Under the pieces are notes generated by a model, which saw only the letters and a list, made by a program, of their open reading frames with translations, did not search any database and had not been told where the DNA came from. A stretch of DNA of 17,909 nt from Planctomycetota bacterium (GTDB taxonomy: Bacteria > Planctomycetota > UBA1135 > UBA2386), in the NCBI GenBank assembly GCA_039029375.1, contig JBCCGH010000196.1, positions 1-17,909 on the forward strand. The letters run 5' to 3'. Below are positions 1,780 through 17,735 of the stretch, piece after piece. Positions within the stretch are counted from its first letter, which is position 1, and the number at the start of each line of letters is the position of its first letter. Made by a program: the position numbers and the translations under genes.

Positions 1780-2916
1780 TCACTTCTCCTCTCCCTCCTC
1801 CTGGACCGCATCGCGGACCAGGCTGCGCAGCTGCGAGGCCACGTCGCCCGCGCCGAACACGAAGGTCGCCTTCGTGCCGGCGAGGATGTCCTGCAGCGCC
1901 TCCAGCTCCTTCATCCGGGCGAGCAGCGGGTTGTCGGCCAGGAGGCGCGCCGTGTTGGCCTGGCTCCGGGCTGCCGCTGTTTCCTCACGGCGCCGGATGA
2001 CGTTGGCCTCCGCCTGCTTCTGCGCCAGGATGACCTGGTTCAGAATCGTCTTCATGTCGCCCGGCAGAACGAGATCGCGGATGCCGACGCCGCGTACGGC
2101 CACACCGAACGCCTTGGCGCGCAACGCGACCGCGTCCCGCACCTCGGCACCCACGGCCTCCTTGTCGGCGAGGAGGCGCTCGAGCGGGCGGCCGCCGACC
2201 GCCGCGCGCAGCGCGAGCTGCGTTTCGCGGTAGAGGGCCTGTTCGGTGTCGCTCACGACGGACACTGCGAGTTGCGGGTCCGTCACCTGGTGTGTGATGA
2301 CGGCGTTCACGCGCAGAGTGACCTTGTCGGCGGTCATGATCTCCTGGCCGGCGACGTCGGCCACCCGCTCGCGCAGGTCCACGACCGCGAAGGTCAACCG
2401 GCCGGCGCCCTTCCAGAACGCGTAGACGCCCGGGCCGAACGAGTCGAGTCGCTCGCCTTCGACGAAGACGAGACCGCGGTGATCCGCGGCGACGCGCATG
2501 TCCTCGAAGAACGCCGCGGTGGGCAGCCGACTGAGGACAACGTCCAGCTTGTCGTGCTCGAACCGCACCGCGTCGGTCTTGTAGATCTCGGCGCGCAGCT
2601 CGTGCCGCGTCTTCCAGAACGCGTGCCGGCCCGGTCCGAGAATCCGCGCCAGGCGGCCGTCCTTCCAGAGGAGCGCCCGTTCGTGGTCGGCGAGCTCGAC
2701 GACGAGCAGCTGCTCGCGGACCTCGTGGTCCAACAGCAGTAGGTCGAGCAACTCGTGCGTGAATTCGTTTTGCAGGGTGTCGACCAACTCGACGTGGTCG
2801 CCGCGGAAGTAGCGTCCGGGCATCCAGTGGGCGCCGGGACGCAGAAGGGCACGAAAGTCGCCGTGGCGGAACCACAGTCCGACTTCGTGCTGACGAACTC
2901 GAATCAGGCTGCTCAT
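1780..2916 (-). CDS. SPFH / band-7 (stomatin-prohibitin-flotillin-HflKC) domain protein, 378 aa, with no N-terminal TM helix
   Basis: SPFH core: GERLDSFGPGVYAFWKG...DLRERVADVAGQEIMTADKVTLRVNAVITHQVTDP...GIRDLVLPGDMKTILNQVILAQKQAEA. An AAGGAG RBS lies 8 nt upstream of the ATG at 2914-2916. The 570-aa ORF in the track is an upstream over-extension. Confidence 0.85.
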   Translation of the reverse strand: MSSLIRVRQHEVGLWFRHGDFRALLRPGAHWMPGRYFRGDHVELVDTLQNEFTHELLDLLLLDHEVREQLLVVELADHERALLWKDGRLARILGPGRHAFWKTRHELRAEIYKTDAVRFEHDKLDVVLSRLPTAAFFEDMRVAADHRGLVFVEGERLDSFGPGVYAFWKGAGRLTFAVVDLRERVADVAGQEIMTADKVTLRVNAVITHQVTDPQLAVSVVSDTEQALYRETQLALRAAVGGRPLERLLADKEAVGAEVRDAVALRAKAFGVAVRGVGIRDLVLPGDMKTILNQVILAQKQAEANVIRRREETAAARSQANTARLLADNPLLARMKELEALQDILAGTKATFVFGAGDVASQLRSLVRDAVQEEGEEK

Positions 2917-3278
2917 GGCAGTGCTCCTTCGGTTGGGGGGGGTGATGGGGAGTCGTTGGGGCTTGGTTTCGATGGATGTCGCACGCGAGAGAGAGTGCGG
3001 TCGGGAGGTGTCACGCGATCCAGGCCCGCTTTGGCAGCGGAACCGCGCGTTCGTGCGGCGAGGGATCGAGGCGAAGGCCAGCGTCGGGATGCTCCATTTC
3101 GCGGAGTGGTCCGTCCGCCGGCGTGCGCGACGATGAGCGCCGAGCAAAGGACGCGATTGCGAGGCTGCCGCGACGGTGCCCCGGCTCGATTCGGCGACGC
3201 AAGGTCGCTCGGACCGAGTCCGGGCCGCCGGTCCGCAGGCACGCTCCCGACCGACACCGGGTCGTAAACGGCTAGAAA

Positions 3279-3422
3279 GGCCGGTTGGGGATTCGAACCC
3301 CGAGGACTGTGAGTCCTTTACCACCCAGACGGGTCTCGAACCCGGGCCGACGCTCGCGCGTCGGCCTCCCCCAGACGGGACACCGGGATAGGATTCTGCG
3401 AGGGACGCCGGTCGAACCCGCG
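3279..3422 (-). other. Cluster of tRNA-like T-arm hairpins (possible tRNA 3'-end remnants or an att-site scar); not an intact tRNA
   Basis: Three GGGTTCGA T-loop-like hairpins on the minus strand: CGGGG-TTCGAAT-CCCC, CGGG-TTCGAGA-CCCG and GGGTTCGACC. There is also a GGCCGACGC-GCGA-GCGTCGGCC GNRA hairpin. No 7-bp acceptor stem and no tmRNA tag frame could be built. Confidence 0.25.
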
Positions 3423-3810
3423 TTCGCGGAACGCAGCGTACCGACACCGGGATCGATCGAGCCGGTGGGGGCGCCGCGCCGCCGGACGACATCCGGTCGA
3501 AGAATGCGAAGTGGGGCCGGCCGCCAGCCGGCCCGAGTCACAGCGTGTTCGCTAGACGATTTCTCTCCATGGCTGCCTCCCTGGGAAAGCGGTGACGGTG
3601 TGAAATGTCGTCGATCCAGCGCGGGGCGACCGACGACGAGGAATGATGATGGGCGAGGACACAGTCCCAATGGACGAATGATGCCCTCATTGCGCCGGAC
3701 GCGGCGGTCCGGCGACTTGGGGTGGTGGCTTGATTGTCAAAGAGCGGGCGGTCCGCCAATGAGTACGGACCCCGACCGATCCGGCAGACCGGCGCATTGC
3801 GTCGTGGCCG

Positions 3811-4499: not shown

Positions 4500-6080
4500 G
4501 TGCGTTCGCAACCCGGAGTGCAACCACGCACGATCGCTGCGCTCGCGGGCCGGTTGCTCGAATGGAACGCTTCGGGGGTGGAGACGTTTTGGCGCGCGAG
4601 CTCGCGCCAGACCCTCGTCCAGTTGGTCGCCGGGAGCTTTGCCGCAATCGCGGTCATCGAGGTGTGGCGGCTGGCGTCTGTCGCTGCCACCGGTGATGTC
4701 GGTGTCCTTGGAGACGCCCCGTTCGCTTGGTACGCCTACCATCCGGGCCGGGGCGTCGCCTCGTGGGTGGTCTCTGCCTGGCCTCTCATTCCTTGGGCCC
4801 TCGGCGTCGGCGCGGGCTTGGAGTTGTGCGTGCGCAGTGCAAAAGGCCAAAGTGCGCGCCGGCATCGCCCCGCGGAGATCGTTCTGGTCGGCCGTGCTCT
4901 CCAGGCGGTTGTCCTGGTGGTCGCAGCCGCTCACGGCGCGACGATGGGTCGGACGGCACCCGGGCTGTGGATCGCGACGGGTTGGGGGGCCGGGTACGCG
5001 CTCGTCGTTTGGCTGCGCCGCTCGCCCCGCGGTCGCCAATGGTGGTCCTTCTGGACCCGGACACGCGGCCGGCAACCTCGGCTCGACGCGCGGGTCCTGG
5101 CGTGCTTGGTCGGGGCCGGCTTCGCTATGGCCGTGCTGTCGATTTTCCTTGCGAGGGCGGCTGGCGCGTGGGGGATTGTGCTCGTGGCGACCGTGCTCGC
5201 GGCGCCCGCTGTCGCGTTTGCTGCCCCGAGTTGGCGCGTGGCGGAGGTGGGAGCCGGGGGAGCCGAGTCTGGCGCGGCGCCGGATCTGGAATCCGAGCTT
5301 CCGGGGCTACACATGATCGAGATCGGCGCCGGGACGTTCGAGATGGGAGGGACGCGCTACGGTGATGAGCAGCCCGTGCACCGAGTCACCGTTGCCGCGT
5401 TCGCGATGGGCGCCACCACCGTCACGCGGGGGCTGTACCGCGCGGTGCTGCGGCGCGCTCCGGCAACGGAAGGACTCTACAAACCCAACTGGCTCGACGA
5501 GGCGGACGGAAACGAGTTGCCTGCCACCGCGTTGAGTTGGGTCGACGCAGCGCGCTTTTGCAATGCGCTGTCTCTACTCGCTGGACGGTCGCCGTACTAC
5601 CGGATGCGCGGCGTGGGAGACAACGCTCGGCCGGTCGCGGATTCGACCGGCGGCTACCGACTGCCCTCCGAGGCGGAGTGGGAGTATGCCTGCCGGGCTG
5701 GCACGACCACCGAGTATTCGTTTGGCGATGATGCATCGCTGCTCAGCGAGCATGCGTGGTGGGGGAACAACTCGGACACAGGATCGGGCCGCTCGGCCCA
5801 GCCGTGCGGCGGCAAGACACCAAATCCGTGGGGTCTGTGCGACATGCACGGCAACGTGTGGGAGTGGTGCGAGGACGACTGGCACGACGACTATCAGGGC
5901 GCGCCGACGGATGGCCGTGCGTGGAACGACGATGGCGTGAGTCGGGTGCTGCGGGGCGGCTCCTTCGGCGTCGACTACCCGGGGCTCTTGCGCTCGGCGT
6001 GCCGGCGCAGGAGCGAGCCCACGCGCCGGCGCGAGAGCATCGGCTTCCGCGTCGTCCGTCCCGCGCGCCGCCAGCGGTGA
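4500..6080 (+). CDS. DGR target protein 1: ~6 predicted TM helices at the N-terminus plus a C-terminal FGE-sulfatase (CLec-fold) domain that carries VR1; GTG start is uncertain
   Basis: Six hydrophobic segments lie within aa 40-235. The FGE/SUMF1-type domain reads GAGTFEMGGTRYGDEQPVHRVTVAAF...RLPSEAEWEYACRAGT...HGNVWEWCEDDW...RGGSF...IGFRVVRP. Its last ~45 codons are homologous to the TR. Confidence 0.8.
   Translation: MRSQPGVQPRTIAALAGRLLEWNASGVETFWRASSRQTLVQLVAGSFAAIAVIEVWRLASVAATGDVGVLGDAPFAWYAYHPGRGVASWVVSAWPLIPWALGVGAGLELCVRSAKGQSARRHRPAEIVLVGRALQAVVLVVAAAHGATMGRTAPGLWIATGWGAGYALVVWLRRSPRGRQWWSFWTRTRGRQPRLDARVLACLVGAGFAMAVLSIFLARAAGAWGIVLVATVLAAPAVAFAAPSWRVAEVGAGGAESGAAPDLESELPGLHMIEIGAGTFEMGGTRYGDEQPVHRVTVAAFAMGATTVTRGLYRAVLRRAPATEGLYKPNWLDEADGNELPATALSWVDAARFCNALSLLAGRSPYYRMRGVGDNARPVADSTGGYRLPSEAEWEYACRAGTTTEYSFGDDASLLSEHAWWGNNSDTGSGRSAQPCGGKTPNPWGLCDMHGNVWEWCEDDWHDDYQGAPTDGRAWNDDGVSRVLRGGSFGVDYPGLLRSACRRRSEPTRRRESIGFRVVRPARRQR
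5941..6073 (+). repeat. DGR variable repeat VR1
   Basis: 133-nt alignment to the TR. 17 mismatches, all at TR adenine positions (AAC codons). The A-free 3' segment cggcttccgcgtcgtccgtcccgcgcgccgcc is identical to the TR and is IMH-like. Confidence 0.85.
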
Positions 6081-6104: not shown

Positions 6105-6123
6105 GCCGCGCCGCAGGCGCGGC
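6105..6123 (+). other. GC hairpin downstream of VR1 (putative DGR homing/cruciform element)
   Basis: GCCGCGCC-GCA-GGCGCGGC followed by cgcgcgtgt, 31 nt after the VR1 end. A near-identical element follows VR2. Confidence 0.6.
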
Positions 6124-6172: not shown

Positions 6173-7165
6173 TCAGAAACACAGCAGCCCGCGATAGGAG
6201 GCCACCACCCGCTCCAACTGTGCGGGTGACTGAGCCGCGGCGACCCGCAGGCGCGCGTCGAGCCGGCGGCGCAACTTCCGCGAGGCGCTCACCCCGGCGC
6301 GACTGATGCGATAGCCCAAAAACACCGCGGGCTCCCGATTGGGGACGACGTGCCACCGCTTGCGATTCAGCTCCAGCCCGCGCTCGCGCTGGAGCCACGC
6401 CGCGATCTGAGCGCGCGCCTCGCGGAGCCGCCCAGCGTCGTCGTCGAACAGCACGAAGTCGTCGGTGTAGCGCACGTAGCCTGGGGCCTTGAGCTCTCGT
6501 TTCACGTGATGATCGAGCCCGTCCAGGTAGAAGGCTCCGGCCCATTGGCTCAAGTACGATCCCAAGCTCAGGCCGCTTTCGGTCGGCAAGGGCGCCCGTT
6601 CGAGGTCGAGTGCAGCCACTGCCAGGGGACTCTCGTACACCGCCGCGTGCGAAGCGAGCTGCCGGTCGATCAACTGCCGCGTGCACGGATCGCGCAAGCG
6701 GCGAAACATCAAGCGCCGCAGCGTCGGCAAGTGGATCGAAGCGAAATAGCGCCGCACGTCGAGGTGCACGCGGTGGCGATGCCGGCGCTGCAGCCGTAAG
6801 AACGTCAGACAAGCGCGCAGCGGACCCTTGGCCTGGGATTGCGCGAAGTGCTCGGGTCGGTAGCCCTGCTCATACGCGGGGCCGATCTCGTCGAGGAGAG
6901 CGCGCTGCACGATCCGGTCGCGGATCGCGGGCGCGGCGATGATGCGGACCTTGGGGTCCGCGATCACCCGTAGCGTCCAGGGCCGAGGCCGGTACCGGCC
7001 ATTGCGCAGTGCCCGGTGTAGCTCCAGGATCTTGCGATCGGCATCGAGGTCGAACCACGCCATTCGCGGCTGCCGCGACTTGCCTCGGCGGCAAGCGCGG
7101 TACGCGCGCCACAGCGCGACGTGGTCGGTCAGGCGTGCAAAAGACCCGGCTGGAACTCGGCGCAT
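6173..7165 (-). CDS. DGR reverse transcriptase (330 aa)
   Basis: RT motifs present: KVRIIAAPAIRDRIVQRAL (motifs 1/2), LDVRRYFASI (motif A), YVRYTDDFVLF (YxDD). The DGR-diagnostic SLGSYLSQ ([ILV]GxxxSQ) is also present. A TR lies immediately upstream. Confidence 0.9.
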   Translation of the reverse strand: MRRVPAGSFARLTDHVALWRAYRACRRGKSRQPRMAWFDLDADRKILELHRALRNGRYRPRPWTLRVIADPKVRIIAAPAIRDRIVQRALLDEIGPAYEQGYRPEHFAQSQAKGPLRACLTFLRLQRRHRHRVHLDVRRYFASIHLPTLRRLMFRRLRDPCTRQLIDRQLASHAAVYESPLAVAALDLERAPLPTESGLSLGSYLSQWAGAFYLDGLDHHVKRELKAPGYVRYTDDFVLFDDDAGRLREARAQIAAWLQRERGLELNRKRWHVVPNREPAVFLGYRISRAGVSASRKLRRRLDARLRVAAAQSPAQLERVVASYRGLLCF

Positions 7166-7337
7166 CAGCGCAACCCAAAGACCGCGTCCCTAAAAAGAGG
7201 CCCGCGCGGACGGTCGGCCGTGCGGCCTACAAGACCGCGCGGGCAGGGGGATCGCGGGGTGCCCCGGCCGTTTCGGCCGAGGTCGAAGCCCCGCCCAAGC
7301 CCTGCACGGCGCCGAGGCGGAGTCGCGGGCGGCGTGT

Positions 7338-7470
7338 TGGCGGCGCGCGGGACGGACGACGCGGAAGCCGATGTTCTCGTTCCGGTTCGTGGGCTCGTTC
7401 CTGTTCCGGTACGCCGAGCGCAAGTTCCTCGGGTTGTCGTTGTCGAAGGAGCCGCCCCGCAGCACCCGAT
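7338..7470 (-). repeat. DGR template repeat (TR)
   Basis: Adenine-rich in the sense (minus) orientation: 27 As, AAC codons translating as ...GGSFDNDNPRNLRSAYRNRNEPTNRNENIGFRVVRP. It is the invariant master copy for VR1 and VR2. It lies 45 nt downstream of avd and ~170 nt upstream of the RT. Confidence 0.85.
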
Positions 7471-7514
7471 GGGGCGGGACGGGAAGTTCGGGCTTGGTGA
7501 AGGTGTGAGCATGG

Positions 7515-7889
7515 CTAGCGGGGCTCGAGCGAGCGCAGCCAGCCGCCCAGCTGGCGGCCAATGCGATCCGCTTCGCCGAGCGCGAAGAACGCCTGCGAGG
7601 AGGCGAGCAGCGCACGCGCCTCGGCGAGCCGCAGATGCACGCGCAGCATCACGAGGCGGTCGTCGGCTTCGGCGAGCCGTTCGTCCACCTCGCGGTGCCG
7701 GACCGCGAGGCTGATGGCGTCGAGCAGACGCAGGCCGTTGTCGCACAGCGAGCGTGCCAGCGGCCGATCGTCGTCCTCCAGCCGATCGAGCAGCCAGGTG
7801 CAGAGTGCGAAGGTGTCGCGGAACACGGGCGCTGTGCCCGGCCGGGGGCGTGGCGTGGTCGGTGGTTCGGGAAGCATGGCGCGGCACAC
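7515..7889 (-). CDS. avd: Avd-like DGR accessory variability determinant (~120 aa helical bundle); start is GTG at 7889 or ATG at 7877
   Basis: Canonical position between the target gene and TR-RT. Size and helical character fit Avd. LVMLRVHLRL...EADRIGRQLGGWLRS resembles Bordetella-phage bAvd LAMLRFWLRFL...EVGRILGSWIAR. Confidence 0.6.
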   Translation of the reverse strand: MCRAMLPEPPTTPRPRPGTAPVFRDTFALCTWLLDRLEDDDRPLARSLCDNGLRLLDAISLAVRHREVDERLAEADDRLVMLRVHLRLAEARALLASSQAFFALGEADRIGRQLGGWLRSLEPR

Positions 7890-7890
7890 C

Positions 7891-8451
7891 TCAGTAGCGT
7901 CGGCGCCGGTCGACGCGGCGCAGCAGGCCGGCGAACGCCGGCATCAACTCCTGCTCGATCGAATCGGCAAGCTCCGCGGCCACCGGGCTCGTCTCTAGCA
8001 GGAGGTCGTTCAGGCAGCGGCTGGCCAGGTCGCGGGCTGTGCCATAGGCGGTGGCTTTCTCCGCGTGGTCGTAGCGGTGGCAACCGCAGCTCAACTGGGC
8101 GAGGGATTCGCGCAGCGTCGCCGTGGCGGCGTGCTCGGTGCCCAGCGATTGCGCAGCGCGCGCGTGGATTGGGGCCATGACCTGGAACGCCTTCAGGTCG
8201 CGTACCGAGTAGCGCTTGCGCGGCGTTGGCTCCGGTTCCAAGCCTAGGCCGGTCTCAACCGCCTCGCGCAAGCGCTCGCGCTTGCGCTCTTGAGCTTCCT
8301 TTCGCGTAGCAGTGAGCGGCAGATCATCGCTGGCAATGAGCCAGCGGCCTCCGACTTTGCGCGCGCGCAGGTTGCCTTGGCGGATGAGGTAGCGGACTTG
8401 GCGCGGGCTCTTGCCAAGCCTCGTGGCGGCGTCGTGCAGGGAAAGGTCCAT
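7891..8451 (-). CDS. Helix-turn-helix (excisionase / MerR-like HTH_17) DNA-binding protein, 186 aa, sitting between target 2 and avd
   Basis: MDLSLHDAATRLGKSPRQVRYLIRQGNLRARKVGGRWLIASDDL is a typical N-terminal HTH. The ATG is at 8449-8451 (internal to the 243-aa track ORF). It is tightly packed against avd. Confidence 0.55.
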   Translation of the reverse strand: MDLSLHDAATRLGKSPRQVRYLIRQGNLRARKVGGRWLIASDDLPLTATRKEAQERKRERLREAVETGLGLEPEPTPRKRYSVRDLKAFQVMAPIHARAAQSLGTEHAATATLRESLAQLSCGCHRYDHAEKATAYGTARDLASRCLNDLLLETSPVAAELADSIEQELMPAFAGLLRRVDRRRRY

Positions 8452-8587
8452 GGTCGTGCGCGTGCGCAGGGGGGAAGCGTCAGGCGTCGGGAGACCGCAC
8501 GGGGATTCCGGGATGCGCCGACGCACGGCGGTGGCGTGTGTGTCATCTTGGTGACCGGCGTGTCGCGCACGCGACAAAATACACGCG

Positions 8588-8604
8588 CCGCGCCTTCGGC
8601 GCGG
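8588..8604 (-). other. GC hairpin downstream of VR2 (counterpart of 6105-6123)
   Basis: Minus strand reads CCGCGCC-GAA-GGCGCGG then cgcgtgt, ~37 nt after the VR2 end. It shares the core CCGCGCCG..GGCGCGGCGCG.GTGT with the VR1 element. Confidence 0.6.
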
Positions 8605-8637
8605 AGACGAGGCAAGCGGCAATCCGCGAGCGGCGAG

Positions 8638-11600
8638 CTACTGGCGGCGCGCGGGACGGACGACGCGGAAGCCGATGTACTCGTTCCGGAGCGTGGGCTC
8701 GCTCCTGTTCCGGTACGCCGAGCGCAAGTTCCCCGGGTTGTCGTTGACGAAGGAGCCGCCCCGCAGCACCCGCCAAGCGTTGGCACCGGCGAGCCAGGCG
8801 TTGCCGTTGTCAGGGGCACCGCCATAGTCGTCGTGCCAACGATCCTCGCACCATTCCCACACGTTGCCGTGCATGTCGAACAGACCCCACGGGTTGGGCC
8901 GCTTGTGCGCGACCCGCTGCACCGAGCGGTCGGCCCCGCTGTCCGAGTTCCGGAACCACCAGGCGTGGGCACTCAATTCCCCGCCGTGGTTGCCGAACCA
9001 ATACGCACCGAGGGTGCCGGCCCGGCAGGCAAACTCCCACTCGGCCTCAGACGGCAGCCGGTAGCCGTCCGGGTTGTCGGGCGCCGGTTCTGCCGTTGCG
9101 CTCTGCCCCTGGCCGTGGACCGCGTAGTACGGGGCGCGGCCCACAAGCCGGGAAAGCGCGTTGCAGAATCGGACGGTATCGAGCCAGCTCAGCTCGTTGG
9201 CCGGGAGGTCGTGCCCGGAGTCCTTCTCCAGCCAGCCGGGCCGGTGAAGTTCCTGGTGGCCTGGCACGTCGTGCGACCGCGCGGCTGCCAACACGGCCCG
9301 GTATTGCGCACGGGTGACCTCGGTACGGCCGATCTCGAAGTCGCGGACGGTGACGGCGTGCTGTGGCAGCTCGTCGCCATACCTCGTGTCCGGGTCACTG
9401 GGGTCGCGGCCCATTTGGAACCGACCGCCTTGCAGACGCACCATGGACAGACCGAGCCGCAGCTGGGGCCGGCCCGCGGCGACCTCAATCGTGGCCTTTG
9501 GCCATAGATCCTCCAGCGGTACGAGTGACTCGGCGAACGCGCCAGCCATCCTGCCAAACCCGTCGGGGGAAACCGCGGCCAGAGACGGCGCGCCGCGCCA
9601 TGCTTGCAGCGCGTGCTTGGTTTGGCCAGTGGGGCCGATCCATACGATCTGCTCGGATTCCGCGCGTTCGAACGGTCTCTCCGCCTCGGCCGGCCCCGAC
9701 GCCGCCTCGCCGACCAACGCCACGTCCACCGACCCCGTATCGAGCAGGGCCATCGCCAACGGCACGGCTTCGCGGTCCTCTGCAGGCGCCGCGATCACCG
9801 CGGCGCTCTGGGTCCACCGGGGATCGTCGACGCGCCGCGGCTCATCGTCCAAGCCCCGCCAAAGGACCAGGAAACCGCCGGCTGGCACGGCGTTCTCGAC
9901 CTCGACCGGGCGCCAACGCGGGTCTACGTCGAGGTCTGGGTTGAACTCGACGCGCGTCAGCCGGCCGGGCATGCCGAGCAGCGCTCGGGCGCGCCCATCC
10001 GCGACATTGATCTTCGCGCATGCGCCCACGGTCACGGCCGGTGGGGGCGGCGGTGCCGTCAGCCGCGGCCCCCACCAGTGGCGCATCACGGGAAGGAACA
10101 GGCAGCCGCCCCCCAGGCCGCAGAGCAACGCCAAGGCGACGGCGGCGGGGCGCGGCAAGCGCGGGTCGGCGAACTCGGTGCGGCGCAGCGCGCCGAAGCC
10201 GAGCCGCTGCAGGCGGTGGACCGTGTCGGGGCGGGCGCACCAGGATGCGCGCGTCGCGGGGCCACCGACCCGCCACGGCAGCCGGACCAACCGGCGTTCG
10301 AGCTCGAGCCGACTCTCCTCCGCGCTGCCGCGGGCTGGCCGCGTGGCAGCCTCCTCGCGCGCTCTCGCGTTGCGCGGCGCCAAGGTTTCGAGGCGGGCCC
10401 GCACGCGCGTTGCGAGGCCGGACGCCGCGAGCCGCTCCAGCGTTGCGGCCGCGGTGTCGGGTGTGCGCCAGAGCTGGAGCAGCGCGATCTCCAGGCGCAA
10501 GGCGAGGCGCTGTTGCTCGCGCTGGTGTCGTTGCCGTGCCCGCTCGGATGACGGCTCCCGGGGCGCTGGGGGGCCTGCACGCACCTCCTCGCCATCGAGC
10601 CGGGCGAGCTCGCGCCGGTAGCCGTCCAGCCAGAACTGCACGCCGTGGCATAGCCAGCCCTCGGTGGGAAAGCCATGGGCAGCATCGTCCGTGCGCGCGA
10701 GCCAGTCACACCAGAGCGCGCGATCCTCGGGGGCGAAGCCGTAGCGCGCCCCGGTGGGGACCGCGTGCTCGAGCAGACGCTCGAGCTGACGCGCTTCGAC
10801 GCTCAGGCCGAGCGCCTCGCGCAGGGCCAGCGCGGTGTCGAAGTCAAAGCTGTCCGGTGTCAGTGCCAGTCCGGCCGCCCAAGCGCGCCGCGCGCCCGTC
10901 AGCGGCGGCGGCGTGCCGCCCGGGTGCAGCCGCGGCAGCTTGCCGTCCATCGTCCCCGGTTCGCCGCCGAGCCAACTCGGCACGGCGGTCGGCGCGAGGC
11001 ACGGAATGCCGTGCCGGCTGGTGATCCGCGCGAGGTCGAACGCGCCTCGGCCGTAGTCGGCAAACGCGAGACGCGGCCATTGGGCCAGGCCGGCCAGCTT
11101 CCGGTCGAGGCGTTGGCGGCGCAGTTCGCCCTGGTCTTGGATCCACAGGCCATGTCCGTCGGTCAGCACGGCGACCAGCGCGGTTTGACGCTGGCCCTCC
11201 ACGGTCTCGGGCCGAAACTGCGTTTGGTTTTCGTCCCACCACAGCGTCTCCAGTGTGCCGTGGAACATCGCGGTCTTGATCGGCAGCCCCGCGGCGCTCG
11301 CGCATTGACCGATCTCGTCACGCTCGCGCTCGATTAGCTCGCGGTCGGCCATGCCGTCGACCCAGAGCCAGATCTCGCGTGGATAGCGCTGCCGTTCTCG
11401 CAGCAACACGAGGTGGCCGCCGTTCTGCGAGGTGGCGGCGACCGTGCGGTCCAGGTCAATGCGGGGCGTGAGGTCGTCGCTCACGTAGTGTTGGACGTTC
11501 CACACCATGTGGCGCAGGGCGGGTTGCGGCAGCAGCGGTGTGGCCTTGGCGGGCGGCGCGAGGTGCGGCAGCGACAGCGCACTCTGTCCCAGCGCGTCGT

Positions 11601-12324
11601 CGTGGAGCTCGGGGACGCGCCGCGCCCGGGCGTAGAACACTGCGCGCGACAAGCCGGCGAGCGCGAGCAGGCCGAAACCCAACAGCAGTGCCGTCGCGAC
11701 TGACGGCGAGCGCGGCACCGGCACGGGGTCGGCCTCCCACGTGGCGAAGCGGCGCACCAAGTTGGGCGGCAGGCCGTCATCGGGCTCGGTGCCTTCGTTG
11801 CCCTGCCCCGGCGTGCCTCGGCCTTGGGCACCGCCCTCTGTTGGTGGTCCGGAGGAGCGGGGTTGCTTCAATGGAGCGTTCGAGCGGGGCTCGCGCTGCG
11901 GGCTTGGGTCACCCGGGTCGCCGGCGAGCGTCAAGACTGCGATCAGTGCGGCGAGGATGAGCCCACCGGCCGCGAGGGTTCTCCAACCGAGGAGGCCAGC
12001 GCAAGGGCGCTCCACTCCCTCTTCCTCCTGGTCCTCGGTCCACCCGCTCTCGATCGGCCGCTGCACCCGGCGCTCGATCTCCCATCGTGCGTTCTGCTGC
12101 CAGCGTTCGAACGCGGCGTCGAACGCCTCGCGCTGCGCCTTGTTTTTGGTCAGCGTGCAGCGCAGCACCTGACGCAGGGGGGCATCCTCGCTCGCCGCTG
12201 GGCCCGCCTCGTCGCCGAGCAGCCGGCACAGATGGTGCAGCCGGGCTCGTTCGAGGACCCCGACCGCGACGCCGTGCGCGTCGAGATCCCGGAGCAGCGC
12301 CTCGAGCTCGAGCGGCGAGTCCAC
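8638..12324 (-). CDS. DGR target protein 2 (1228 aa): N-terminal cytoplasmic domain, 3 TM helices, a ~500-aa middle domain (possible degenerate vWA) and a C-terminal FGE-sulfatase/CLec domain carrying VR2
   Basis: GTG start 1 nt after the MoxR stop. TM helices at ~aa 113-135, 205-227 and 720-741. A vWA-like ...TALVAVLTDGHG motif is present. The FGE domain reads GGRFQMGRDPSDPDTRYGDELPQHAVTVRDF...RLPSEAEWEFACRAGT...HGNVWEWCEDRW...RGGSF...IGFRVVRPARRQ. Confidence 0.85.
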   Translation of the reverse strand: MDSPLELEALLRDLDAHGVAVGVLERARLHHLCRLLGDEAGPAASEDAPLRQVLRCTLTKNKAQREAFDAAFERWQQNARWEIERRVQRPIESGWTEDQEEEGVERPCAGLLGWRTLAAGGLILAALIAVLTLAGDPGDPSPQREPRSNAPLKQPRSSGPPTEGGAQGRGTPGQGNEGTEPDDGLPPNLVRRFATWEADPVPVPRSPSVATALLLGFGLLALAGLSRAVFYARARRVPELHDDALGQSALSLPHLAPPAKATPLLPQPALRHMVWNVQHYVSDDLTPRIDLDRTVAATSQNGGHLVLLRERQRYPREIWLWVDGMADRELIERERDEIGQCASAAGLPIKTAMFHGTLETLWWDENQTQFRPETVEGQRQTALVAVLTDGHGLWIQDQGELRRQRLDRKLAGLAQWPRLAFADYGRGAFDLARITSRHGIPCLAPTAVPSWLGGEPGTMDGKLPRLHPGGTPPPLTGARRAWAAGLALTPDSFDFDTALALREALGLSVEARQLERLLEHAVPTGARYGFAPEDRALWCDWLARTDDAAHGFPTEGWLCHGVQFWLDGYRRELARLDGEEVRAGPPAPREPSSERARQRHQREQQRLALRLEIALLQLWRTPDTAAATLERLAASGLATRVRARLETLAPRNARAREEAATRPARGSAEESRLELERRLVRLPWRVGGPATRASWCARPDTVHRLQRLGFGALRRTEFADPRLPRPAAVALALLCGLGGGCLFLPVMRHWWGPRLTAPPPPPAVTVGACAKINVADGRARALLGMPGRLTRVEFNPDLDVDPRWRPVEVENAVPAGGFLVLWRGLDDEPRRVDDPRWTQSAAVIAAPAEDREAVPLAMALLDTGSVDVALVGEAASGPAEAERPFERAESEQIVWIGPTGQTKHALQAWRGAPSLAAVSPDGFGRMAGAFAESLVPLEDLWPKATIEVAAGRPQLRLGLSMVRLQGGRFQMGRDPSDPDTRYGDELPQHAVTVRDFEIGRTEVTRAQYRAVLAAARSHDVPGHQELHRPGWLEKDSGHDLPANELSWLDTVRFCNALSRLVGRAPYYAVHGQGQSATAEPAPDNPDGYRLPSEAEWEFACRAGTLGAYWFGNHGGELSAHAWWFRNSDSGADRSVQRVAHKRPNPWGLFDMHGNVWEWCEDRWHDDYGGAPDNGNAWLAGANAWRVLRGGSFVNDNPGNLRSAYRNRSEPTLRNEYIGFRVVRPARRQ
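8642..8774 (-). repeat. DGR variable repeat VR2
   Basis: Collinear with TR 7338-7470. 6 mismatches, all at TR adenines. The A-free 3' segment is identical to the TR. Confidence 0.85.
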
Positions 12325-12325
12325 G

Positions 12326-13285
12326 TCAGAGTTTCTGCCAGTCTTCGGTCAGCTTGATCAGCGCGTGGACGCCTGGCAAGTCGCGCCGCACCGTCTGCAG
12401 GTCGGCGGCCCGGGTGCCCTGCGCCGCGAGGACCGCGAGCCACGAGAGCAGCTCCGCCGTGGTGGGGGGCTTGGTCAGCTCCCAGTCGGCGAGCTCGAAG
12501 AAGCGATCGATCGCCGCCTCGCGCACGTCGTCCGACAGGCCCGGAAACGACGATTGAAGCCGGCTCTGCACGATGTCTTCGACGAGCTTGCGGGTGAGGG
12601 TCAAGTGCTGGTGGATGCAACGGCGCAGAAACGCGTCCGGGAGCCGTCGCTCGGCGTTGCTCGTGATGACCACGATCGGCGACCGCTGCGGCCGGATCTT
12701 GCGATCCTCGAACGGATGCTCGAACCACTGCTGGTCGAGCACGTGCAGCAGGTCGTTGGGAAAGTCGCGCGGCGCCTTGTCGATCTCGTCGATCAGCACG
12801 ACGGCGCCGTTCGGTTGGTCAAAGGACCTCCACAGCGCGCGCTTGCGGACGAAGTCGCCGCGGCCGCGGCGCAGCGCCGGCTGCCCGTCGCCGCCCCCTT
12901 CGCCCGGGGCCTCGCTGCCGTGCTGGGCCCAGTGCAAGTAGGCGACGGCGTCAAAGTCGTAGCACAGCTCCTGCGCCGTCGACGTTGACTGCACGTGAAA
13001 GGCAAAGACCTCGAGCCCAAAGAACCAGCCCAGGTAGTGCGCGACCTGCGTCTTGCCCGTGCCCGGCGCGCCGGTCAGCAGCAACGGTGCGTCCACCGCC
13101 AACGCGGTGTTGATCGCGGTCTCGAGGTCGGCGCTCAGCCGGTAGTCCGGGGCGGCCTCGGTATGGTCGTGCAGGCTGCGCGGCACGCCGCGCTGGTGCA
13201 TGCTGGCGCGCGCAGCCGCCGGGTCGTGGCCTTCGCGCGTCGCGCGGCGGTCCACCAGCTGGAAGCGTGGTCGACGGGGGGTCAT
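12326..13285 (-). CDS. MoxR-like AAA+ ATPase (AAA_5 type), 319 aa
   Basis: Walker A LLLTGAPGTGKTQVA. Walker B VVLIDEIDKAP. Sensor region IVVITSNAE...LPDAFLRRC. ATGA start/stop overlap with the upstream TIR gene. Confidence 0.85.
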   Translation of the reverse strand: MTPRRPRFQLVDRRATREGHDPAAARASMHQRGVPRSLHDHTEAAPDYRLSADLETAINTALAVDAPLLLTGAPGTGKTQVAHYLGWFFGLEVFAFHVQSTSTAQELCYDFDAVAYLHWAQHGSEAPGEGGGDGQPALRRGRGDFVRKRALWRSFDQPNGAVVLIDEIDKAPRDFPNDLLHVLDQQWFEHPFEDRKIRPQRSPIVVITSNAERRLPDAFLRRCIHQHLTLTRKLVEDIVQSRLQSSFPGLSDDVREAAIDRFFELADWELTKPPTTAELLSWLAVLAAQGTRAADLQTVRRDLPGVHALIKLTEDWQKL

Positions 13286-15588
13286 GGTTCGGGCACCTCG
13301 GCCGGCAGCCCGCGCAGCCTGTCGCGGACGTCGTACCAGTTGCTGCGCTGGGCATGCTCGAGCCAGCGGACGGTCTTCTCGAAGTCGCCATCCGTGACCT
13401 GGTGCAGCAGGCTGGCAAACTCGCGGGCGTCGGCGGGAGGGAGGCCGCTGAGGTCGATGACCGCGTCGAGGATGTGAGTGCGTTCCACTCGCTCGAGGGG
13501 GCGCAAAACCTCGAGGCGGAAAGCCTTGGTGCGCGAGTCAAAGGCTAGGTCTTCGAGCTGGACGCGCATCTTGTCATGCAGCGAGGGCTCGCCCTCGAGC
13601 CCGAGGAGGGTGAGGACCTTGACGGCGTGCGGTCGGTAGCGCTCTTGGGTCAGTGTGTCCCGCGAGAAATCGCGAAACGCCGCGACGAGCCGCTCGGCCT
13701 GCTGCCAGCTGTCGATGCCGCGGCACCCCCAATCCAAGAACAGGATTCTCGGTTTGTCAGGTTGGCCGCGGGGCGCCGCGGCATCCAACGCGGCGCGCAG
13801 CTCGTGGTCGCCATCTGCGTGGCTCATCGCCGCCACCAACGCATCGCCGAGATCGCCGGCCCGGAGGTCGATGTCAGGCGGGAGCCGCACGGGCACCCGT
13901 CGCACCGGCGCGATGTCGAGTGCGTGGTCCACGAGCGCCTGCTCGGCGTGCTCGCCGAACAGTTCGACGTGGTTGCCAGGGGAACCCCAAGCGATCGCCG
14001 CGTGCACCAGCTCCTCGCGGTTGGCCACCAGTCCATCGAACATCTTGCGAAAGGCGCCGCGCTGCTCGTGCCGGTCGAGCATCAACCGGGCCAGGCGCCG
14101 TTCGATCGGGCGGGCGCTGGCCTGGACGTCCACGCGGAACTGGTCGTAGCGCGTCCAGATGGCGGCCGCGCGGTGCAGTCCATGAGCGACGGCCTCGACC
14201 GGATCGCAGTTCTCGGCCCCGAGCACCGCCCGTAGCCACTCGACCGCATCGGTCTTGTTCTTCGCCAGGTCCTGCTTGCGGGGCGTGAGGAGCAGCACGA
14301 CCGAGGCGGCGCGGTACAGGGCCTGAGGCAACGCCGCGATCGTGGCGGGGCGCGCGCCCACGAGGTGCAAGACGACAACGCGGGCCTTGCAGCCGTCGAG
14401 GAGTTCTTCGAGCGGCACCCACGTGGCGTTCGACGGACTGTCGCCCAGCTCCACCTCGGCCACGCCCTTCCGTATGCGGCCGCGAGCGAACACATACGCC
14501 ACGACGGGCTGCTCGTGACGGACCAGGGATTGCGCTTGGGCCACGGTCGCGCAGGGAGCTGCGACGTTGGGCGCGCCCCACGCCTCCTCGAGCCCACTGC
14601 GGACGCCGTGGCCGTGCGAGAGCGCGCCGAGATCGTCGCGCGGGCCCGCGGCCACGATCAGCGTGGGGCAGGGCGCGCGCAGTGCCGACGCATCCGGGCT
14701 GCCGGCGCCTTGCGAGCACAGCTCAAAGGTCCAGAGCTGGCGCAGCGGTTCGCCGTCCCAGGTCGTTTCCCACCAGGGCAGCCCGAGCAGCTCTGGGTCT
14801 TCGGTGTCGATGCGCACTCGCAACGCGAGGCTCAACGGGGTGGGGTGCGAGCCCCCAGCCGGGGCACTCAGACTGCCGAGCACTTGTTCGGTGCAGGGCT
14901 CTGGGAGCAGGAGGTCGAACAATTCGCTGGGACGAGCGTCTCGCGCCAGTGCCGCATCCGCCTCGCACTGGGTGATGGTCGCTCCATCGGGGCCGTGGAA
15001 TTCGCTGCGCAGTTGGTCGCCGTCGCGGGAGATGCGCACGGTGAGGGTTTGCCGTTCGGCCTCGTACGCGGGGCGACGGAGCCACCTCGGCTCGCGCTGT
15101 GCCATGGCGAGCAGCTGCTGTACGGCGCGGTTTAGGGCTGTCTTCCGCTCGTGGCCGGATTCGGGGAGGCCATCAGGCCCGGTCAAGCCGTGCAGCTCGG
15201 ACAGACGGAACTCGTGCGGCGTCCCGTCTAGCTCCCGAACGTCCAGCGCGATCTGATCGATCAGCGTCGGCCCAACGGCCAGCCACGTGATGTCGAGGAG
15301 CTTGCGCTGGCGCTGCTGGTACAGCAGAGGCAGCTCGACTTCGGTGACCCACTTCGAGTTGAGCGCTTCGGCACTGACGAGAAGGACCCCGATCCGGGCC
15401 GCCTCGATCGCTTCGCGAATGGTCCGGTCCAACCGCGCGCCCGCGACGATTTCCTCGTCGGTCCAGATCTCCAGGGGCAGCGGCGGACTGGCACCGCGCA
15501 GTGCCGGCTCGAGCACCTGGCGGAACTCCTCCAGCACCGGCCGGTCCTTGCGCGAGTAACTAATGAAGATGTGGTTGCGACTCGCCAT
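13282..15588 (-). CDS. TIR-domain protein (768 aa): N-terminal TIR plus a ~600-aa uncharacterised C-terminal region; first gene of the operon
   Basis: HIFISYSRKDRPVLEEF is TIR motif 1. ARIGVLLVSAEALNSKWVTEVEL contains the conserved W..E (candidate catalytic Glu). No P-loop is present. Confidence 0.85.
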   Translation of the reverse strand: MASRNHIFISYSRKDRPVLEEFRQVLEPALRGASPPLPLEIWTDEEIVAGARLDRTIREAIEAARIGVLLVSAEALNSKWVTEVELPLLYQQRQRKLLDITWLAVGPTLIDQIALDVRELDGTPHEFRLSELHGLTGPDGLPESGHERKTALNRAVQQLLAMAQREPRWLRRPAYEAERQTLTVRISRDGDQLRSEFHGPDGATITQCEADAALARDARPSELFDLLLPEPCTEQVLGSLSAPAGGSHPTPLSLALRVRIDTEDPELLGLPWWETTWDGEPLRQLWTFELCSQGAGSPDASALRAPCPTLIVAAGPRDDLGALSHGHGVRSGLEEAWGAPNVAAPCATVAQAQSLVRHEQPVVAYVFARGRIRKGVAEVELGDSPSNATWVPLEELLDGCKARVVVLHLVGARPATIAALPQALYRAASVVLLLTPRKQDLAKNKTDAVEWLRAVLGAENCDPVEAVAHGLHRAAAIWTRYDQFRVDVQASARPIERRLARLMLDRHEQRGAFRKMFDGLVANREELVHAAIAWGSPGNHVELFGEHAEQALVDHALDIAPVRRVPVRLPPDIDLRAGDLGDALVAAMSHADGDHELRAALDAAAPRGQPDKPRILFLDWGCRGIDSWQQAERLVAAFRDFSRDTLTQERYRPHAVKVLTLLGLEGEPSLHDKMRVQLEDLAFDSRTKAFRLEVLRPLERVERTHILDAVIDLSGLPPADAREFASLLHQVTDGDFEKTVRWLEHAQRSNWYDVRDRLRGLPAEVPEP

Positions 15589-15660: not shown

Positions 15661-16737
15661 ATGTACCTGACCGATCTCCGCCTCCGAAACGTCAAGCTGT
15701 TCCGCGAGGTGGACCTCGCGTTCAGGGGGAACGACGACAGTGCGCGTATGTGGACCGTCGTCACCGGTGTCAACGGCCTGTGCAAGTCGACCTTGTTGCA
15801 GGCGATCGCCTTGGCCGCATCGGGGCCGAAGGTGGCCCGGGCGCTCGTCGACGACGCGCGCGACTATGTGCGCGGGGAGGGCACCGGCGGTTGCATGATC
15901 GCCGCCGGGTTCGAGCGCGCCGTCGATGCGCCGCCGATCGAGTCCGCGGGCGCCACCATTGACCGCAAACGCCTGGACTCCGTCCTGGAGCTCCACTCGA
16001 CGGACTACGATTTTGCTGGGCACGGCGAGGACTGGCGTCACATCGACGCCCTGCGGAGCGCTCGGGCGTCCGGGTTTCTCGTCGCGGGGATCGGGGTCGG
16101 CCGAACGCTGCCGCAGCCGGGCGAGGTGGCGGCGCCCAAAGACCCGATCGAGGATCGAGTGGTGGGCCTGTTTCGCTCAGGCCACAAGATGGTGGGCACC
16201 GAGTTCTATAACGCGCTCAAGCTGGACGGCCTGGAGCAGGATTTCGCCAAGTCACTTCGTTCGGTCCTGCTCCGCCTGCAGTCGACGGAGGACGGCCGGG
16301 CGCCGCTGCTGACGGGGCTTTGCGTCGACGACTTGCGGGGTCCGAACGGCCTCGATGCGATGCGGAACCTGTTGGAGACGCGGCGGTTTGAGATGTCCCT
16401 CGGAGAGACCCGGTTCCGAGTCAAGCCGACCATGCTGTCGCACGGTTATCAGGGTGTGCTGTCGTGGATCGGCGATTTGCTGGGCTACGCGTTCTTGGAG
16501 CAGCGGCGGCCGATCGAGCCGCAGGAACTCCGGGGGATCGTATTGCTCGACGAAATCGACCAGCAACCACTCGGTGCGCGAAGTGCTCCTTGCCGTTCAG
16601 CACAAGAAATGCTGCTACTGCGAGCAAGCCCTCGAGCGTGGCAACGGTGCGGTCGAGCATTTTCGGCCCAAGGTCGCGGTGCGTCGCGAAGTGACAGGAG
16701 GAGTGAAACAGACCGGCTACTGGTGGCTCGCCTATGA
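15661..16737 (+). CDS. PtuA-like (AAA_15/AAA_21, ABC-type) ATPase. Sequence after Walker B (~16565) looks out of frame and non-protein-like, so it is probably truncated or frameshifted
   Basis: MYLTDLRLRNVKLF...VTGVNGLCKSTLL is Walker A. LSHGYQGVLSWIGDL is an ABC-signature-like LSxGxQ. GIVLLDEIDQ is Walker B. No H-loop follows, and the tail QPLGARSAPCRSAQ... is Arg/Ser-rich junk. Confidence 0.5.
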   Translation: MYLTDLRLRNVKLFREVDLAFRGNDDSARMWTVVTGVNGLCKSTLLQAIALAASGPKVARALVDDARDYVRGEGTGGCMIAAGFERAVDAPPIESAGATIDRKRLDSVLELHSTDYDFAGHGEDWRHIDALRSARASGFLVAGIGVGRTLPQPGEVAAPKDPIEDRVVGLFRSGHKMVGTEFYNALKLDGLEQDFAKSLRSVLLRLQSTEDGRAPLLTGLCVDDLRGPNGLDAMRNLLETRRFEMSLGETRFRVKPTMLSHGYQGVLSWIGDLLGYAFLEQRRPIEPQELRGIVLLDEIDQQPLGARSAPCRSAQEMLLLRASPRAWQRCGRAFSAQGRGASRSDRRSETDRLLVARL

Positions 16738-17200
16738 ATTCCGCAACCTGCTTTTCTCCTGTGATGCGTGCAACAGCGCCAAATCCGATCGGTTCCCGCT
16801 CATTGAGGGCGCGACCGCTCTCGAACCAGAGCAGTCTCCGGATGAGGTCGAGGAACACCAGATGCTCGTCGACCCCCTTCGCGAGGACCCCGGTGCGCAC
16901 CTGACCTTCGTGCGCACGGGAGGGCGCTACCAGCTGGCGCCGCGCTCGGAGCGCGGCAGGGTGACGATCGAAGTGTTGGGTCTACGCCGGGACGGTCTCA
17001 AAGATCTCTATCAGCAGCACGTCAGCGAGACGTTGGCAGCGGTTATCCGAGACTACCGGCGCGACAAGAAGCGGGGGGACCGGAACGGCGTCCGCCGGGC
17101 CAGGGATCGGGCAAAGCGACTGTGCGTTCGAGAGAAGAGATTCTCGCTGCTCGCGCTTTGCTGTTTCCTTGAACAGGGTGTGGTGACGCTGCCTCGATGA
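16574..17200 (+). CDS. HNH endonuclease (PtuB-like / TIGR02646-type), ~208 aa, GTG start
   Basis: CCYCEQALERGNGAVEHFRPK...YWWLAYEFRNLLFSCDACNSAKSD fits the HNH pattern (C-x-Y-C-E ... H-x-x-P-K ... N-L-x-x-x-C-x-x-C-N). Its frame starts inside the upstream ATPase ORF. Confidence 0.7.
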   Translation: MREVLLAVQHKKCCYCEQALERGNGAVEHFRPKVAVRREVTGGVKQTGYWWLAYEFRNLLFSCDACNSAKSDRFPLIEGATALEPEQSPDEVEEHQMLVDPLREDPGAHLTFVRTGGRYQLAPRSERGRVTIEVLGLRRDGLKDLYQQHVSETLAAVIRDYRRDKKRGDRNGVRRARDRAKRLCVREKRFSLLALCCFLEQGVVTLPR

Positions 17201-17228: not shown

Positions 17229-17735
17229 TCACGACCGCGTGCGCGACCGCGGACCACCCCCGGCACGGCACACCACCAAGCCGTCCGTTTGCATGCCGAG
17301 TCCCACGATGTAGTGCACGTAGTGGAACACGGCGGGGGCCACCAGAATCAGGCTGTCGAAGCGATCGAGCAAGCCGCCGTGTCCGGGGATCGTCTGGCCG
17401 AGGTCCTTGACGCCCAGATCACGCTTGATCGAGGACCGCATCAGATCGCCGAGCTGCCCCACGACGCTGACGATCAGCCCAAGACCGAGCAGCGGCAGGG
17501 GCGCGTCCATCGCGGTGCCTTTGAAGATGTAGTGACCGAGCAGCGCGACGAGCGGCGCGATGACGACGCAAGCGCCGATCGCGCCGCCGAGCGTCTTGTT
17601 TGGGCTCGTGTTGGGCGCGAGCTTGCGCTTGCCGAACGACTTGCCGGCGATGAACGCGGCGACGTCGTTTGCGGCTCGTTGTTTTGTCTCTAGAGCGAGG
17701 GGCCTCGGGGCGTGGTGGGCAGGACGCCGCAGGCT
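17229..17735 (-). pseudogene. cdsA: 5'-truncated phosphatidate cytidylyltransferase (cdsA) fragment; C-terminal ~150 aa only
   Basis: CdsA signatures: FIAGKSFGKRKLAPNTSPNKTLGGAIG and SSIKRDLGVKDLGQTIPGHGGLLDRFDSLILVAP. Upstream, the frame loses homology at ~17690 and hits TGA at 17736-17738 with no in-frame start codon. The N-terminal TM half is absent. Confidence 0.6.

Follow-up and report, generated by a model that had tools for sequence, protein, structure and literature searches.

What is being diversified when a diversity-generating retroelement (DGR) writes into the last gene of a cassette that otherwise encodes a TIR protein and an AAA+ ATPase? The question is raised by a 17,909-bp contig of a Planctomycetota metagenome-assembled genome, or MAG (GenBank assembly GCA_039029375.1, contig JBCCGH010000196.1; GC ~69%), which was analysed over its whole length and is called the window here. 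Three tightly packed minus-strand genes encode TIR768 (768 amino acids (aa), 13282-15588), AAA319 (319 aa, 12326-13285) and T1228 (1228 aa, 8638-12324), and the DGR follows directly. With confidence somewhat better than even, we read the locus as a MoxR-vWA ternary conflict system of the iSTAND (inactive STAND) type, in which a three-pass inner-membrane vWA protein, T1228, carries a DGR-targeted, extracytoplasmic C-type lectin (CLec) domain.

A conserved three-gene cassette

An ATGA at 13282-13285 overlaps the TGA stop of the TIR768 gene with the ATG start of the AAA319 gene, and T1228 begins at a GTG just one nucleotide (12325) past the AAA319 stop, a start that is backed by the N-terminal alignment with homologues. 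Overlap and 1-nt gap together imply translational coupling of the three genes, as the initial annotation of this sequence had claimed. The order is not peculiar to the window. Contig look-ups and one genome scan with a 5-sequence alignment yielded 31 related loci (32 with the window, numbered with an L where they have to be told apart), in which genes were called with local hidden Markov models built from the window and the first loci. A TIR or CHAT head on a conserved ~590-aa segment, then the AAA gene, then the core protein is the order in about 24 of these 32, across several phyla. Their hosts belong to the Planctomycetota, Acidobacteriota, Gammaproteobacteria and other lineages, and include Phycisphaeraceae, Holophagales, Thermoanaerobaculia, Accumulibacter, Competibacter, Thiosymbion, Entotheonella and Nannocystaceae, among others. 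The genes for the TIR-iSTAND-like protein, the MoxR-like ATPase and the vWA-transmembrane-CLec protein form one conserved, tightly packed cassette.

Both ends of the cassette are modular. The third-component protein carries a TIR head in 20 loci, the window included, and a CHAT head in two (L002 and L003), and the tail of the core protein is FGE in 80 of 107 long representatives and otherwise Sel1, OmpA, a beta-propeller or a segment with no assignment. In L001, an Accumulibacter-related locus, the long target is split at 12805-12816 into a 934-aa open reading frame (ORF) and a 214-aa FGE ORF in another frame. The split is due either to a frameshift, in a pseudogene or through faulty assembly, or to a natural separation of vWA-linker and FGE-sulfatase (FGS) parts, as in some ternary systems.

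The DGR and its two targets

The DGR is complete, with an HTH gene, an Avd-like gene, a template repeat (TR) and a reverse transcriptase (RT), and it has two targets. The TR (7338-7468, minus strand) contains 26 adenines, every one of them at codon position 1 or 2, and 8 AAC codons. Its first variable repeat, VR1 (8642-8772, minus strand, 131 nt), forms the C-terminal end of the T1228 gene and is 95% identical to the TR, with six mismatches, all six at TR adenines. The second, VR2 (5943-6073, plus strand), forms the end of a gene convergent on the RT gene, encoding the 526-aa protein T526 (4500-6080, plus strand); it has 16 mismatches, again all at TR adenines, so that 16 of the 26 are changed. 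Six of six and 16 of 16 is no chance pattern: the DGR has rewritten adenine-templated codons in two genes, T1228 and T526. The initial annotation was right that T1228 is hypervariable through an intact DGR lying just downstream; it cited that one target, and T526 with VR2 is a second. Both VRs end 3-6 nt short of the stop codon, and both genes have the FGE/CLec fold.

The 330-aa RT (6173-7165, minus strand) matches RVT_1 at 5.7e-14 and the PADLOC RT model at 3e-35, with YTDD at aa 233. Upstream of the TR is a bAvd-like gene (7515-7889, minus strand, 124 aa) with a match to PF22296 of 2e-8 and 35.1 bits, under the 40-bit cut-off; its syntenic homologue in L001 is called bAvd. Between it and the long target lies an excisionase-like HTH_17 gene (7891-8454, minus strand; Pfam 1.1e-8), 55% identical in its product to the L001 homologue and kept in this place in nine DGR-bearing loci. 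Since the homologues start at Met57, the first 56 codons of the corresponding 243-aa ORF (7891-8622) are probably untranslated. A 240-aa ORF at 7165-7887 was set aside as spurious: it overlaps the TR and the Avd-like gene, is rich in Arg, Pro and Ala, and matches no family.

A GC-rich hairpin, CGCGCCG-AAGGCG-CGGCGCG, stands ~35 nt 3' of VR1 (8584-8603, minus strand), and another, GCCGCGCC-GCA-GGCGCGGC, stands 3' of VR2 (6105-6123, plus strand). The two are near-identical, both lie ~35-40 nt past their VR, and none follows the TR. In the DGRs of Bordetella and Legionella such a 3' hairpin marks the recipient sites, and by analogy the pair described here are candidate target-recognition elements.

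The comparison of gene neighbourhoods that the initial annotation had suggested shows the linkage of cassette and DGR to be recurrent, with an RT in 11 of the 32 loci and a TR with A-biased mismatches in 9. In seven loci a single TR serves two genes, the long target and a convergent, short FGE gene. Such a short partner gene is found in 20 of the 32, usually encoding the motif RRLDYLPxW, two transmembrane (TM) segments, a Pro-rich linker and the FGE domain. In five loci with neither an RT nor a TR nearby (L014, L015, L019, L021 and L024), the long and short targets still share 79-87% identity at their 3' ends, where the mismatches come as clustered doublets and the flanks are identical. This points to a TR at some other place in the genome or to one that has been lost since.

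Domains and topology of the long target

T1228, which NCBI annotates as 'FGE family protein', consists in order of a four-helix N-domain, TM1, a Pro/Gly-rich loop, TM2, a vWA-like domain, a helical linker, TM3, a region of ~200 aa and the FGE/CLec domain with VR1. The last of these is the one part that sequence models recognize (FGE-sulfatase, aa 960-1223, 8656-9447 on the minus strand, as are all coordinates in this section; Pfam 1.4e-54). A Pfam search at E<=10 of T1228 and 20 core sequences gave no vWA or other match before FGE, and a core profile run against PDB sequences found nothing relevant. A HMMER scan of 1.84 billion representatives gave 296 relatives of aa 1-760 at E<=1e-3, and the rest of the architecture has been drawn from an AlphaFold2 model built on a 67-sequence alignment, with a mean predicted local distance difference test score (pLDDT) of 80 and values above 90 over most of aa 260-650.

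The N-domain (aa 1-88, 12061-12324), conserved in homologues, is modelled as helices at aa 7-16, 23-39, 47-58 and 62-88; its 10-residue blocks mostly score pLDDT 73-96, with a drop to 62 at aa 41-50. TM1 (aa ~111-135, 11920-11994; Kyte-Doolittle 2.36; modelled helix 111-134) and TM2 (aa ~208-231, 11632-11703; 1.96), the latter followed by RARR, enclose the Pro/Gly-rich loop, which is disordered in the model. An alpha/beta domain comes next (aa ~279-455, 10960-11490), in which the MIDAS motif DxSxS is replaced by D323-G-M-A-D and an 'LTDG' strand is retained. A Foldseek search against PDB gave no significant match, the top one being NorD at E 0.06; the closest structural matches are NorD, of the NorQ-NorD pair, and the MIDAS domain of Rea1/Midasin. 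On the model, then, the middle domain appears to be a divergent vWA fold set behind the four-helix domain. The helical linker (aa ~477-707, 10204-10896) connects it to TM3 (aa ~727-747, 10084-10146; 2.17). A fourth hydrophobic window, at aa 853-871, is weak and, with Asp residues in it, cannot credibly be taken for a TM segment.

The initial annotation had placed the N-terminal and middle domains of a three-TM protein in the cytoplasm and its FGE/CLec end outside. The three segments are strongly hydrophobic, and the family bears out the orientation. Among 82 FGE-bearing relatives scanned by the Kyte-Doolittle method, 43 have two TM segments ahead of the core and a third that separates it from FGE, and a further 21 score as one and one at the threshold used; the prevailing arrangement in the family is a single TM segment between core and FGE. 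Lys plus Arg residues (K+R) were counted in the 18-aa flanks of each segment in the 48 members with two segments before the core and at least one after it. Their means are 4.29 on the N-side and 1.52 on the C-side of TM1, 1.60 and 4.44 for TM2, and 3.50 and 1.65 for TM3. This clear positive-inside pattern predicts the N-terminus in, the vWA domain in and the FGE/CLec domain out. A hydropathy scan found no hydrophobic segment in TIR768 or AAA319; that the presumed partners of the vWA domain are soluble, one of them ATP-dependent, also points to a cytoplasmic vWA.

The short target presents a different picture. T526 has a polytopic N-terminus and a C-terminal FGE/CLec domain (FGE-sulfatase, 1.2e-51) that is 59% identical to that of T1228. 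There seem to be six hydrophobic segments in it, and its loops at aa 112-123 and 173-196 are rich in Arg, which would place its FGE domain in the cytoplasm, opposite to that of T1228.

The ATPase and the TIR protein

AAA319 matches Pfam AAA_5 at 4.5e-10, and against PDB the profile of its family finds the AAA modules of Midasin (4e-16) and then the D2 domains of ClpA/ClpB. Across 17 homologues there is no variation in the Walker A GxPGTGKT (GAPGTGKT in the window), the Walker B LIDEIDKA, the sensor-1 TSN or the RR pair; AAA319 is, by these motifs, catalytically intact. It has a conserved N-terminal stretch of ~45 aa and is 44-57% identical to the ATPases that adjoin homologous core genes. From its sequence it can safely be called an AAA_5-class, MoxR-like ATPase. 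Its best named NCBIfam match is 'MadB family AAA-type ATPase' (NF047784, 8e-18, far below cut-off); a literature search for MadB did not find its system. An exact-sequence contig look-up with AAA319 found nothing.

TIR768, the third component, begins with a TIR domain (aa ~1-165, 15094-15588, minus strand) that matches Pfam TIR_2 at 6.5e-12 over aa 7-94 and, by profile, the PDB TIR structure 3h16 at 1.1e-8. Its Glu85, in the motif S..W/F/Y...E[LVI]P, is invariant in the family, and the domain probably has NADase activity. After a beta domain comes a caspase/CHAT-like fold (aa ~305-480, 14149-14676, minus strand), in which the homologue alignment has no conserved His/Cys dyad, and then an AAA+/STAND-like P-loop domain (aa ~500-768, 13285-14091, minus strand) with a degenerate Walker A, AWGSPGNH, lacking Lys and a Walker-B-like strand, 'LFLDWG'; the alignment gives the family P-loop as [AG][AGD][PE][GS][ND], likewise without Lys. 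The invariant E85, the missing dyad and the Lys-less P-loop describe a TIR domain followed by a beta domain, a dead caspase-like domain and a dead AAA+/STAND-like domain. The CHAT-headed homologues of L002 and L003 would then hold two caspase-like domains. In other searches the third-component profile matched only TIR chains in PDB, leaving the C-terminal 600 aa unmatched, and a word-indexed homology search with the third component matched only itself; the homologues were gathered instead from neighbour genes of T1228 relatives and by exact look-up.

Comparison with known systems

Kaur et al., 2020 (eLife, PMC7159879) defined the MoxR-vWA ternary conflict systems by comparative genomics. In their iSTAND subtype, the MoxR protein has no extensions; the vWA protein has a four-helix N-domain and, in ~28% of cases, N-terminal TM segments, and it varies at its C-terminus, which is FGS in ~22% and in others OmpA, PASTA, PEGA or Sel1 preceded by a TM segment; and the third protein has an inactive STAND core with a TIR, caspase-like, trypsin or EAD head. 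DGRs accompany the vWA-FGS fusions. The resemblance to these systems that the initial annotation had noticed holds feature by feature. The third component joins a head of the TIR or caspase-like sort to a STAND-like core that seems inactive, the ATPase is MoxR-like, and the vWA protein has the four-helix N-domain, TM segments and FGS tail, its relatives carrying OmpA or Sel1 after a TM segment. There are differences as well. The vWA domain of T1228 is invisible to sequence models and has lost its MIDAS motif, and the dead caspase-like domain is not mentioned for the iSTAND third component in the parts of PMC7159879 consulted. The STAND-like domain is likened to iSTAND by description, and the helical linker corresponds to the 'vWA-L' linker of PMC8195603 in position. 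The iSTAND systems in PMC7159879 come mainly from cyanobacteria, proteobacteria and bacteroidetes, which leaves a Planctomycetota MAG outside the main hosts; none of the organism names looked up occurs in the supplement text of that paper.

The VMAP ternary systems of the same paper share with the window a MoxR gene, a vWA-FGS protein, an effector-headed third protein and a neighbouring DGR. They are described there as cytoplasmic and come mainly from cyanobacteria and gammaproteobacteria, whereas the long target of the window is a membrane protein. No Pfam match to VMAP-M or VMAP-C was obtained for the window's proteins even at E<=10, and membership of that type has been rejected. In the profile searches that had been proposed for the three proteins, TIR_2, AAA_5 and FGE-sulfatase were matched, and the VWA and VMAP sequence models were not. 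Of the outcomes that the initial annotation named as refuting its idea, namely a cytoplasmic FGE domain, homologues never accompanied by a TR or RT, and profile searches with no TIR or MoxR match, none was obtained.

Doré et al., 2024 (PNAS, PMC10907252) described DGR loci in which a MoxR gene lies upstream of a long CLec target 'without predicted domains'. These loci also contain an HTH gene, TIR or peptidase genes and a second target, which is short and consists of CLec only. For some TM-containing targets the authors predicted a periplasmic CLec, and they proposed a model running from sensor to MoxR to effector. Their loci (from Thiohalocapsa PB-PSB1 and relatives; clade 5A / DGR 8 and DGR 9) share with the window the MoxR gene directly upstream of the long target, the HTH gene, the second short target, the adjacent TIR or peptidase genes and the predicted periplasmic CLec domain, and this architecture is also seen in L004, L006, L008, L010, L018, L020 and L029. 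The N-terminal extension that is domain-less in that paper models here as four helices, a vWA-like domain and a helical linker, and the effector of the window, unlike those of the PMC10907252 loci, is a TIR domain fused to the third component.

With the canonical DGRs of BPP-1 (Mtd) and Treponema (TvpA), the present one shares its RT, an Avd-like gene, the adenine-specific TR/VR relationship, a VR at the end of a C-terminal CLec domain and the 3' GC hairpin. It differs in having two targets on opposite strands and an extra HTH gene, and in that a target belongs to an NTPase/TIR cassette rather than being a tail fibre or lipoprotein. NorQ-NorD and Rea1/Midasin, the closest matches in structure for the middle domain and in sequence for the ATPase, mature metalloenzymes or ribosomes by way of an intact MIDAS, whereas here the MIDAS is degenerate and the setting is that of a conflict system.

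The type of system is therefore already described by comparative genomics, including DGR-diversified FGS proteins and iSTAND types with TM segments (PMC7159879, PMC10907252), and after two such studies the locus is a clean, compact further example, not a new class. The initial annotation held that the linkage had not been characterised experimentally. No experimental study of any such MoxR-vWA/DGR system was found in the literature searched, and to that extent the statement stands; its novelty was overstated, the linkage having been described computationally. What is added here is the link, through the four-helix, vWA and linker regions of the 'domain-less' extension, between the loci of PMC10907252 and the iSTAND systems of PMC7159879, along with the dead caspase-like domain, the family-wide topology argument, the hairpins shared by the VRs, and the co-diversification of long and short targets even in loci that lack a nearby RT. 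T1228 and T526 are not covered by any PADLOC model, and the PADLOC matches to TIR768 are to the TIR domain only; without models for the two targets in PADLOC v2, the locus is not among its catalogued defence systems.

A proposed mechanism and its rivals

How might such parts work together? On the reading favoured here, the hypervariable lectin tip would bind a ligand in the periplasm or at the surface -- for example part of a phage or of some other invader, or a molecule on a foreign cell surface -- and TM3 and the helical linker would relay the binding event to the vWA domain in the cytoplasm. Working as a hexamer, the MoxR-like ATPase would spend ATP to remodel or release the iSTAND scaffold, and the N-terminal TIR domains would oligomerise and consume or convert NAD+, with growth arrest, death or signalling as the outcome. 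The DGR would let the lineage re-aim the sensor with the signalling machinery unchanged. Known MoxR-vWA pairs, such as NorQ/NorD and midasin, remodel complexes through the vWA/MIDAS domain, and a role in conflict is supported by the PtuA-like ATPase gene that adjoins the cassette. The arrangement of the parts, and the notion of a signal passing from sensor by way of MoxR to effector, are already set out in PMC7159879 and PMC10907252. Were the sensor reading true, the locus would be the closest bacterial parallel to a hypermutating adaptive antigen receptor wired to TIR, with its binding site predicted to lie outside. Going further, T1228 may be a transmembrane immune receptor whose periplasmic lectin domain detects invaders such as phage particles ahead of their entry or in the course of it, signalling across the inner membrane by a vWA-MoxR switch to TIR as the executioner, and T526 may be a receptor sampling the same ligand space inside, both supplied from one template; we put this forward tentatively and with low confidence. 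If it is true, bacteria would have in this pair a counterpart of the surface receptors that are diversified somatically and linked to TIR signalling.

Several points weigh against the favoured reading. VR1 is altered at just 6 of the 26 TR adenines, a MAG consensus is mute on ongoing diversification, and in about nine homologous loci both targets are present but neither an RT nor a TR lies close by. The K+R flanks of T1228 itself are weak (2/3/3/4/4/2), and the predicted topology comes from the family and a Kyte-Doolittle scan. The initial annotation's TIR and MoxR assignments hold in that TIR_2 and AAA_5 are significant; the strict MoxR models match AAA319 weakly and below cut-off (bpMoxR 1.2e-3; AAA_3, E 0.2). 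The ligand and every signalling step are inferred. Finally, for the authors of PMC7159879 and PMC8195603 it is the iSTAND protein that senses, and the FGS domain is the effector.

That last view, the published one for iSTAND and VMAP systems, amounts to the opposite wiring (Kaur/Aravind): a cytoplasmic iSTAND protein, which might for instance be a receptor for nucleic acids, would detect the invader, TIR would generate the signal, the MoxR-vWA pair would be a thresholding chaperone, and the DGR-diversified FGS domain would be an envelope output that traps or blocks the invader or engages the cell wall. The dead STAND domain is conserved, and the envelope-binding OmpA and Sel1 tails found at the FGE position look more like anchors or effectors than sensors. 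We nevertheless think this arrangement unlikely: it is the iSTAND protein itself that carries TIR or CHAT, domains well established elsewhere in defence as effectors or signal generators, a hypervariable, retargetable binding site is what would be expected of a recognition module, and a domain tethered outside by a TM helix could not reach an intracellular invader. The predicted outside position of the CLec domain would also suit a non-immune role, in which a retargetable surface receptor (for self/non-self, a partner, adhesion or an environmental ligand) serves aggregating bacteria and the TIR, MoxR and vWA parts act as a signalling or cell-fate module, for instance in allorecognition or in the programmed death of cells in a consortium. 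Proteins that bind ligands at the surface are common among DGR targets, and the family is present in lineages that live in flocs, as symbionts or in consortia (Accumulibacter, Competibacter, Thiosymbion, Entotheonella). Cyanobacterial DGR targets have, moreover, earlier been proposed to tune signalling (cited in PMC10907252). Yet TIR/CHAT heads with the MoxR-vWA ternary architecture have so far been tied to conflict systems, a PtuA-like defence ATPase adjoins, and there are no adhesion or secretion genes within the cassette, so that a non-immune role seems quite improbable.

It could also be asked whether the DGR merely happens to lie beside an unrelated TIR/ATPase operon, with T1228 functionally unlinked to the genes upstream of it. 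The DGR core (short FGE gene, HTH, Avd, TR and RT) does face either way relative to the cassette (the window against L001, L006 and L012), and four loci (L018, L027, L028 and L031) have the core-FGE gene with no ATPase and iSTAND genes adjoining. Chance adjacency is scarcely credible, however, given the translational coupling through the ATGA overlap and the 1-nt gap, the three-gene order held in ~24 loci across phyla, the co-variation of the ATPase with the core protein at the identities given above, and the fact that vWA and MoxR-class proteins are a known functional couple.

The value of the locus is as an experimental entry point: 11 kb span the three conflict genes, both targets, the HTH and Avd-like genes, the TR and the RT, and with all parts apparently intact the locus could be cloned as a unit.

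Flanking genes and other features

An Rfam search of the whole window gave no match, and no sigma-70-like promoter was found between 5800 and 16000. Divergent from the TIR gene is an ORF for a PtuA-like ABC/AAA ATPase (15662-16737, plus strand; PADLOC 3e-23), followed in another frame by an ORF (16355-17200, plus strand) with the HNH motif CCYCE...EHFRPK...CDACNSAK; together they resemble a Septu-like pair that may have undergone a frameshift or been cut short after Walker B. Beyond them, at 17229-17510 on the minus strand, is a C-terminal fragment of a CDP-diglyceride synthase-like protein (CTP_transf_1), apparently frameshifted. On the other side of the locus lie minus-strand genes for a 570-aa SPFH/Band-7 protein (1780-3492) and a 363-aa Laminin_G_3/ConA-like protein (444-1535). 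A 51-nt direct repeat, 80% identical between its copies, occurs at both ends of the contig (44-94 and 17838-17888), encoding similar Arg-rich minus-strand peptides (RK..RRRHI.GY.E); the copies could be the ends of paralogous genes at which the assembly broke, or the boundaries of an island.

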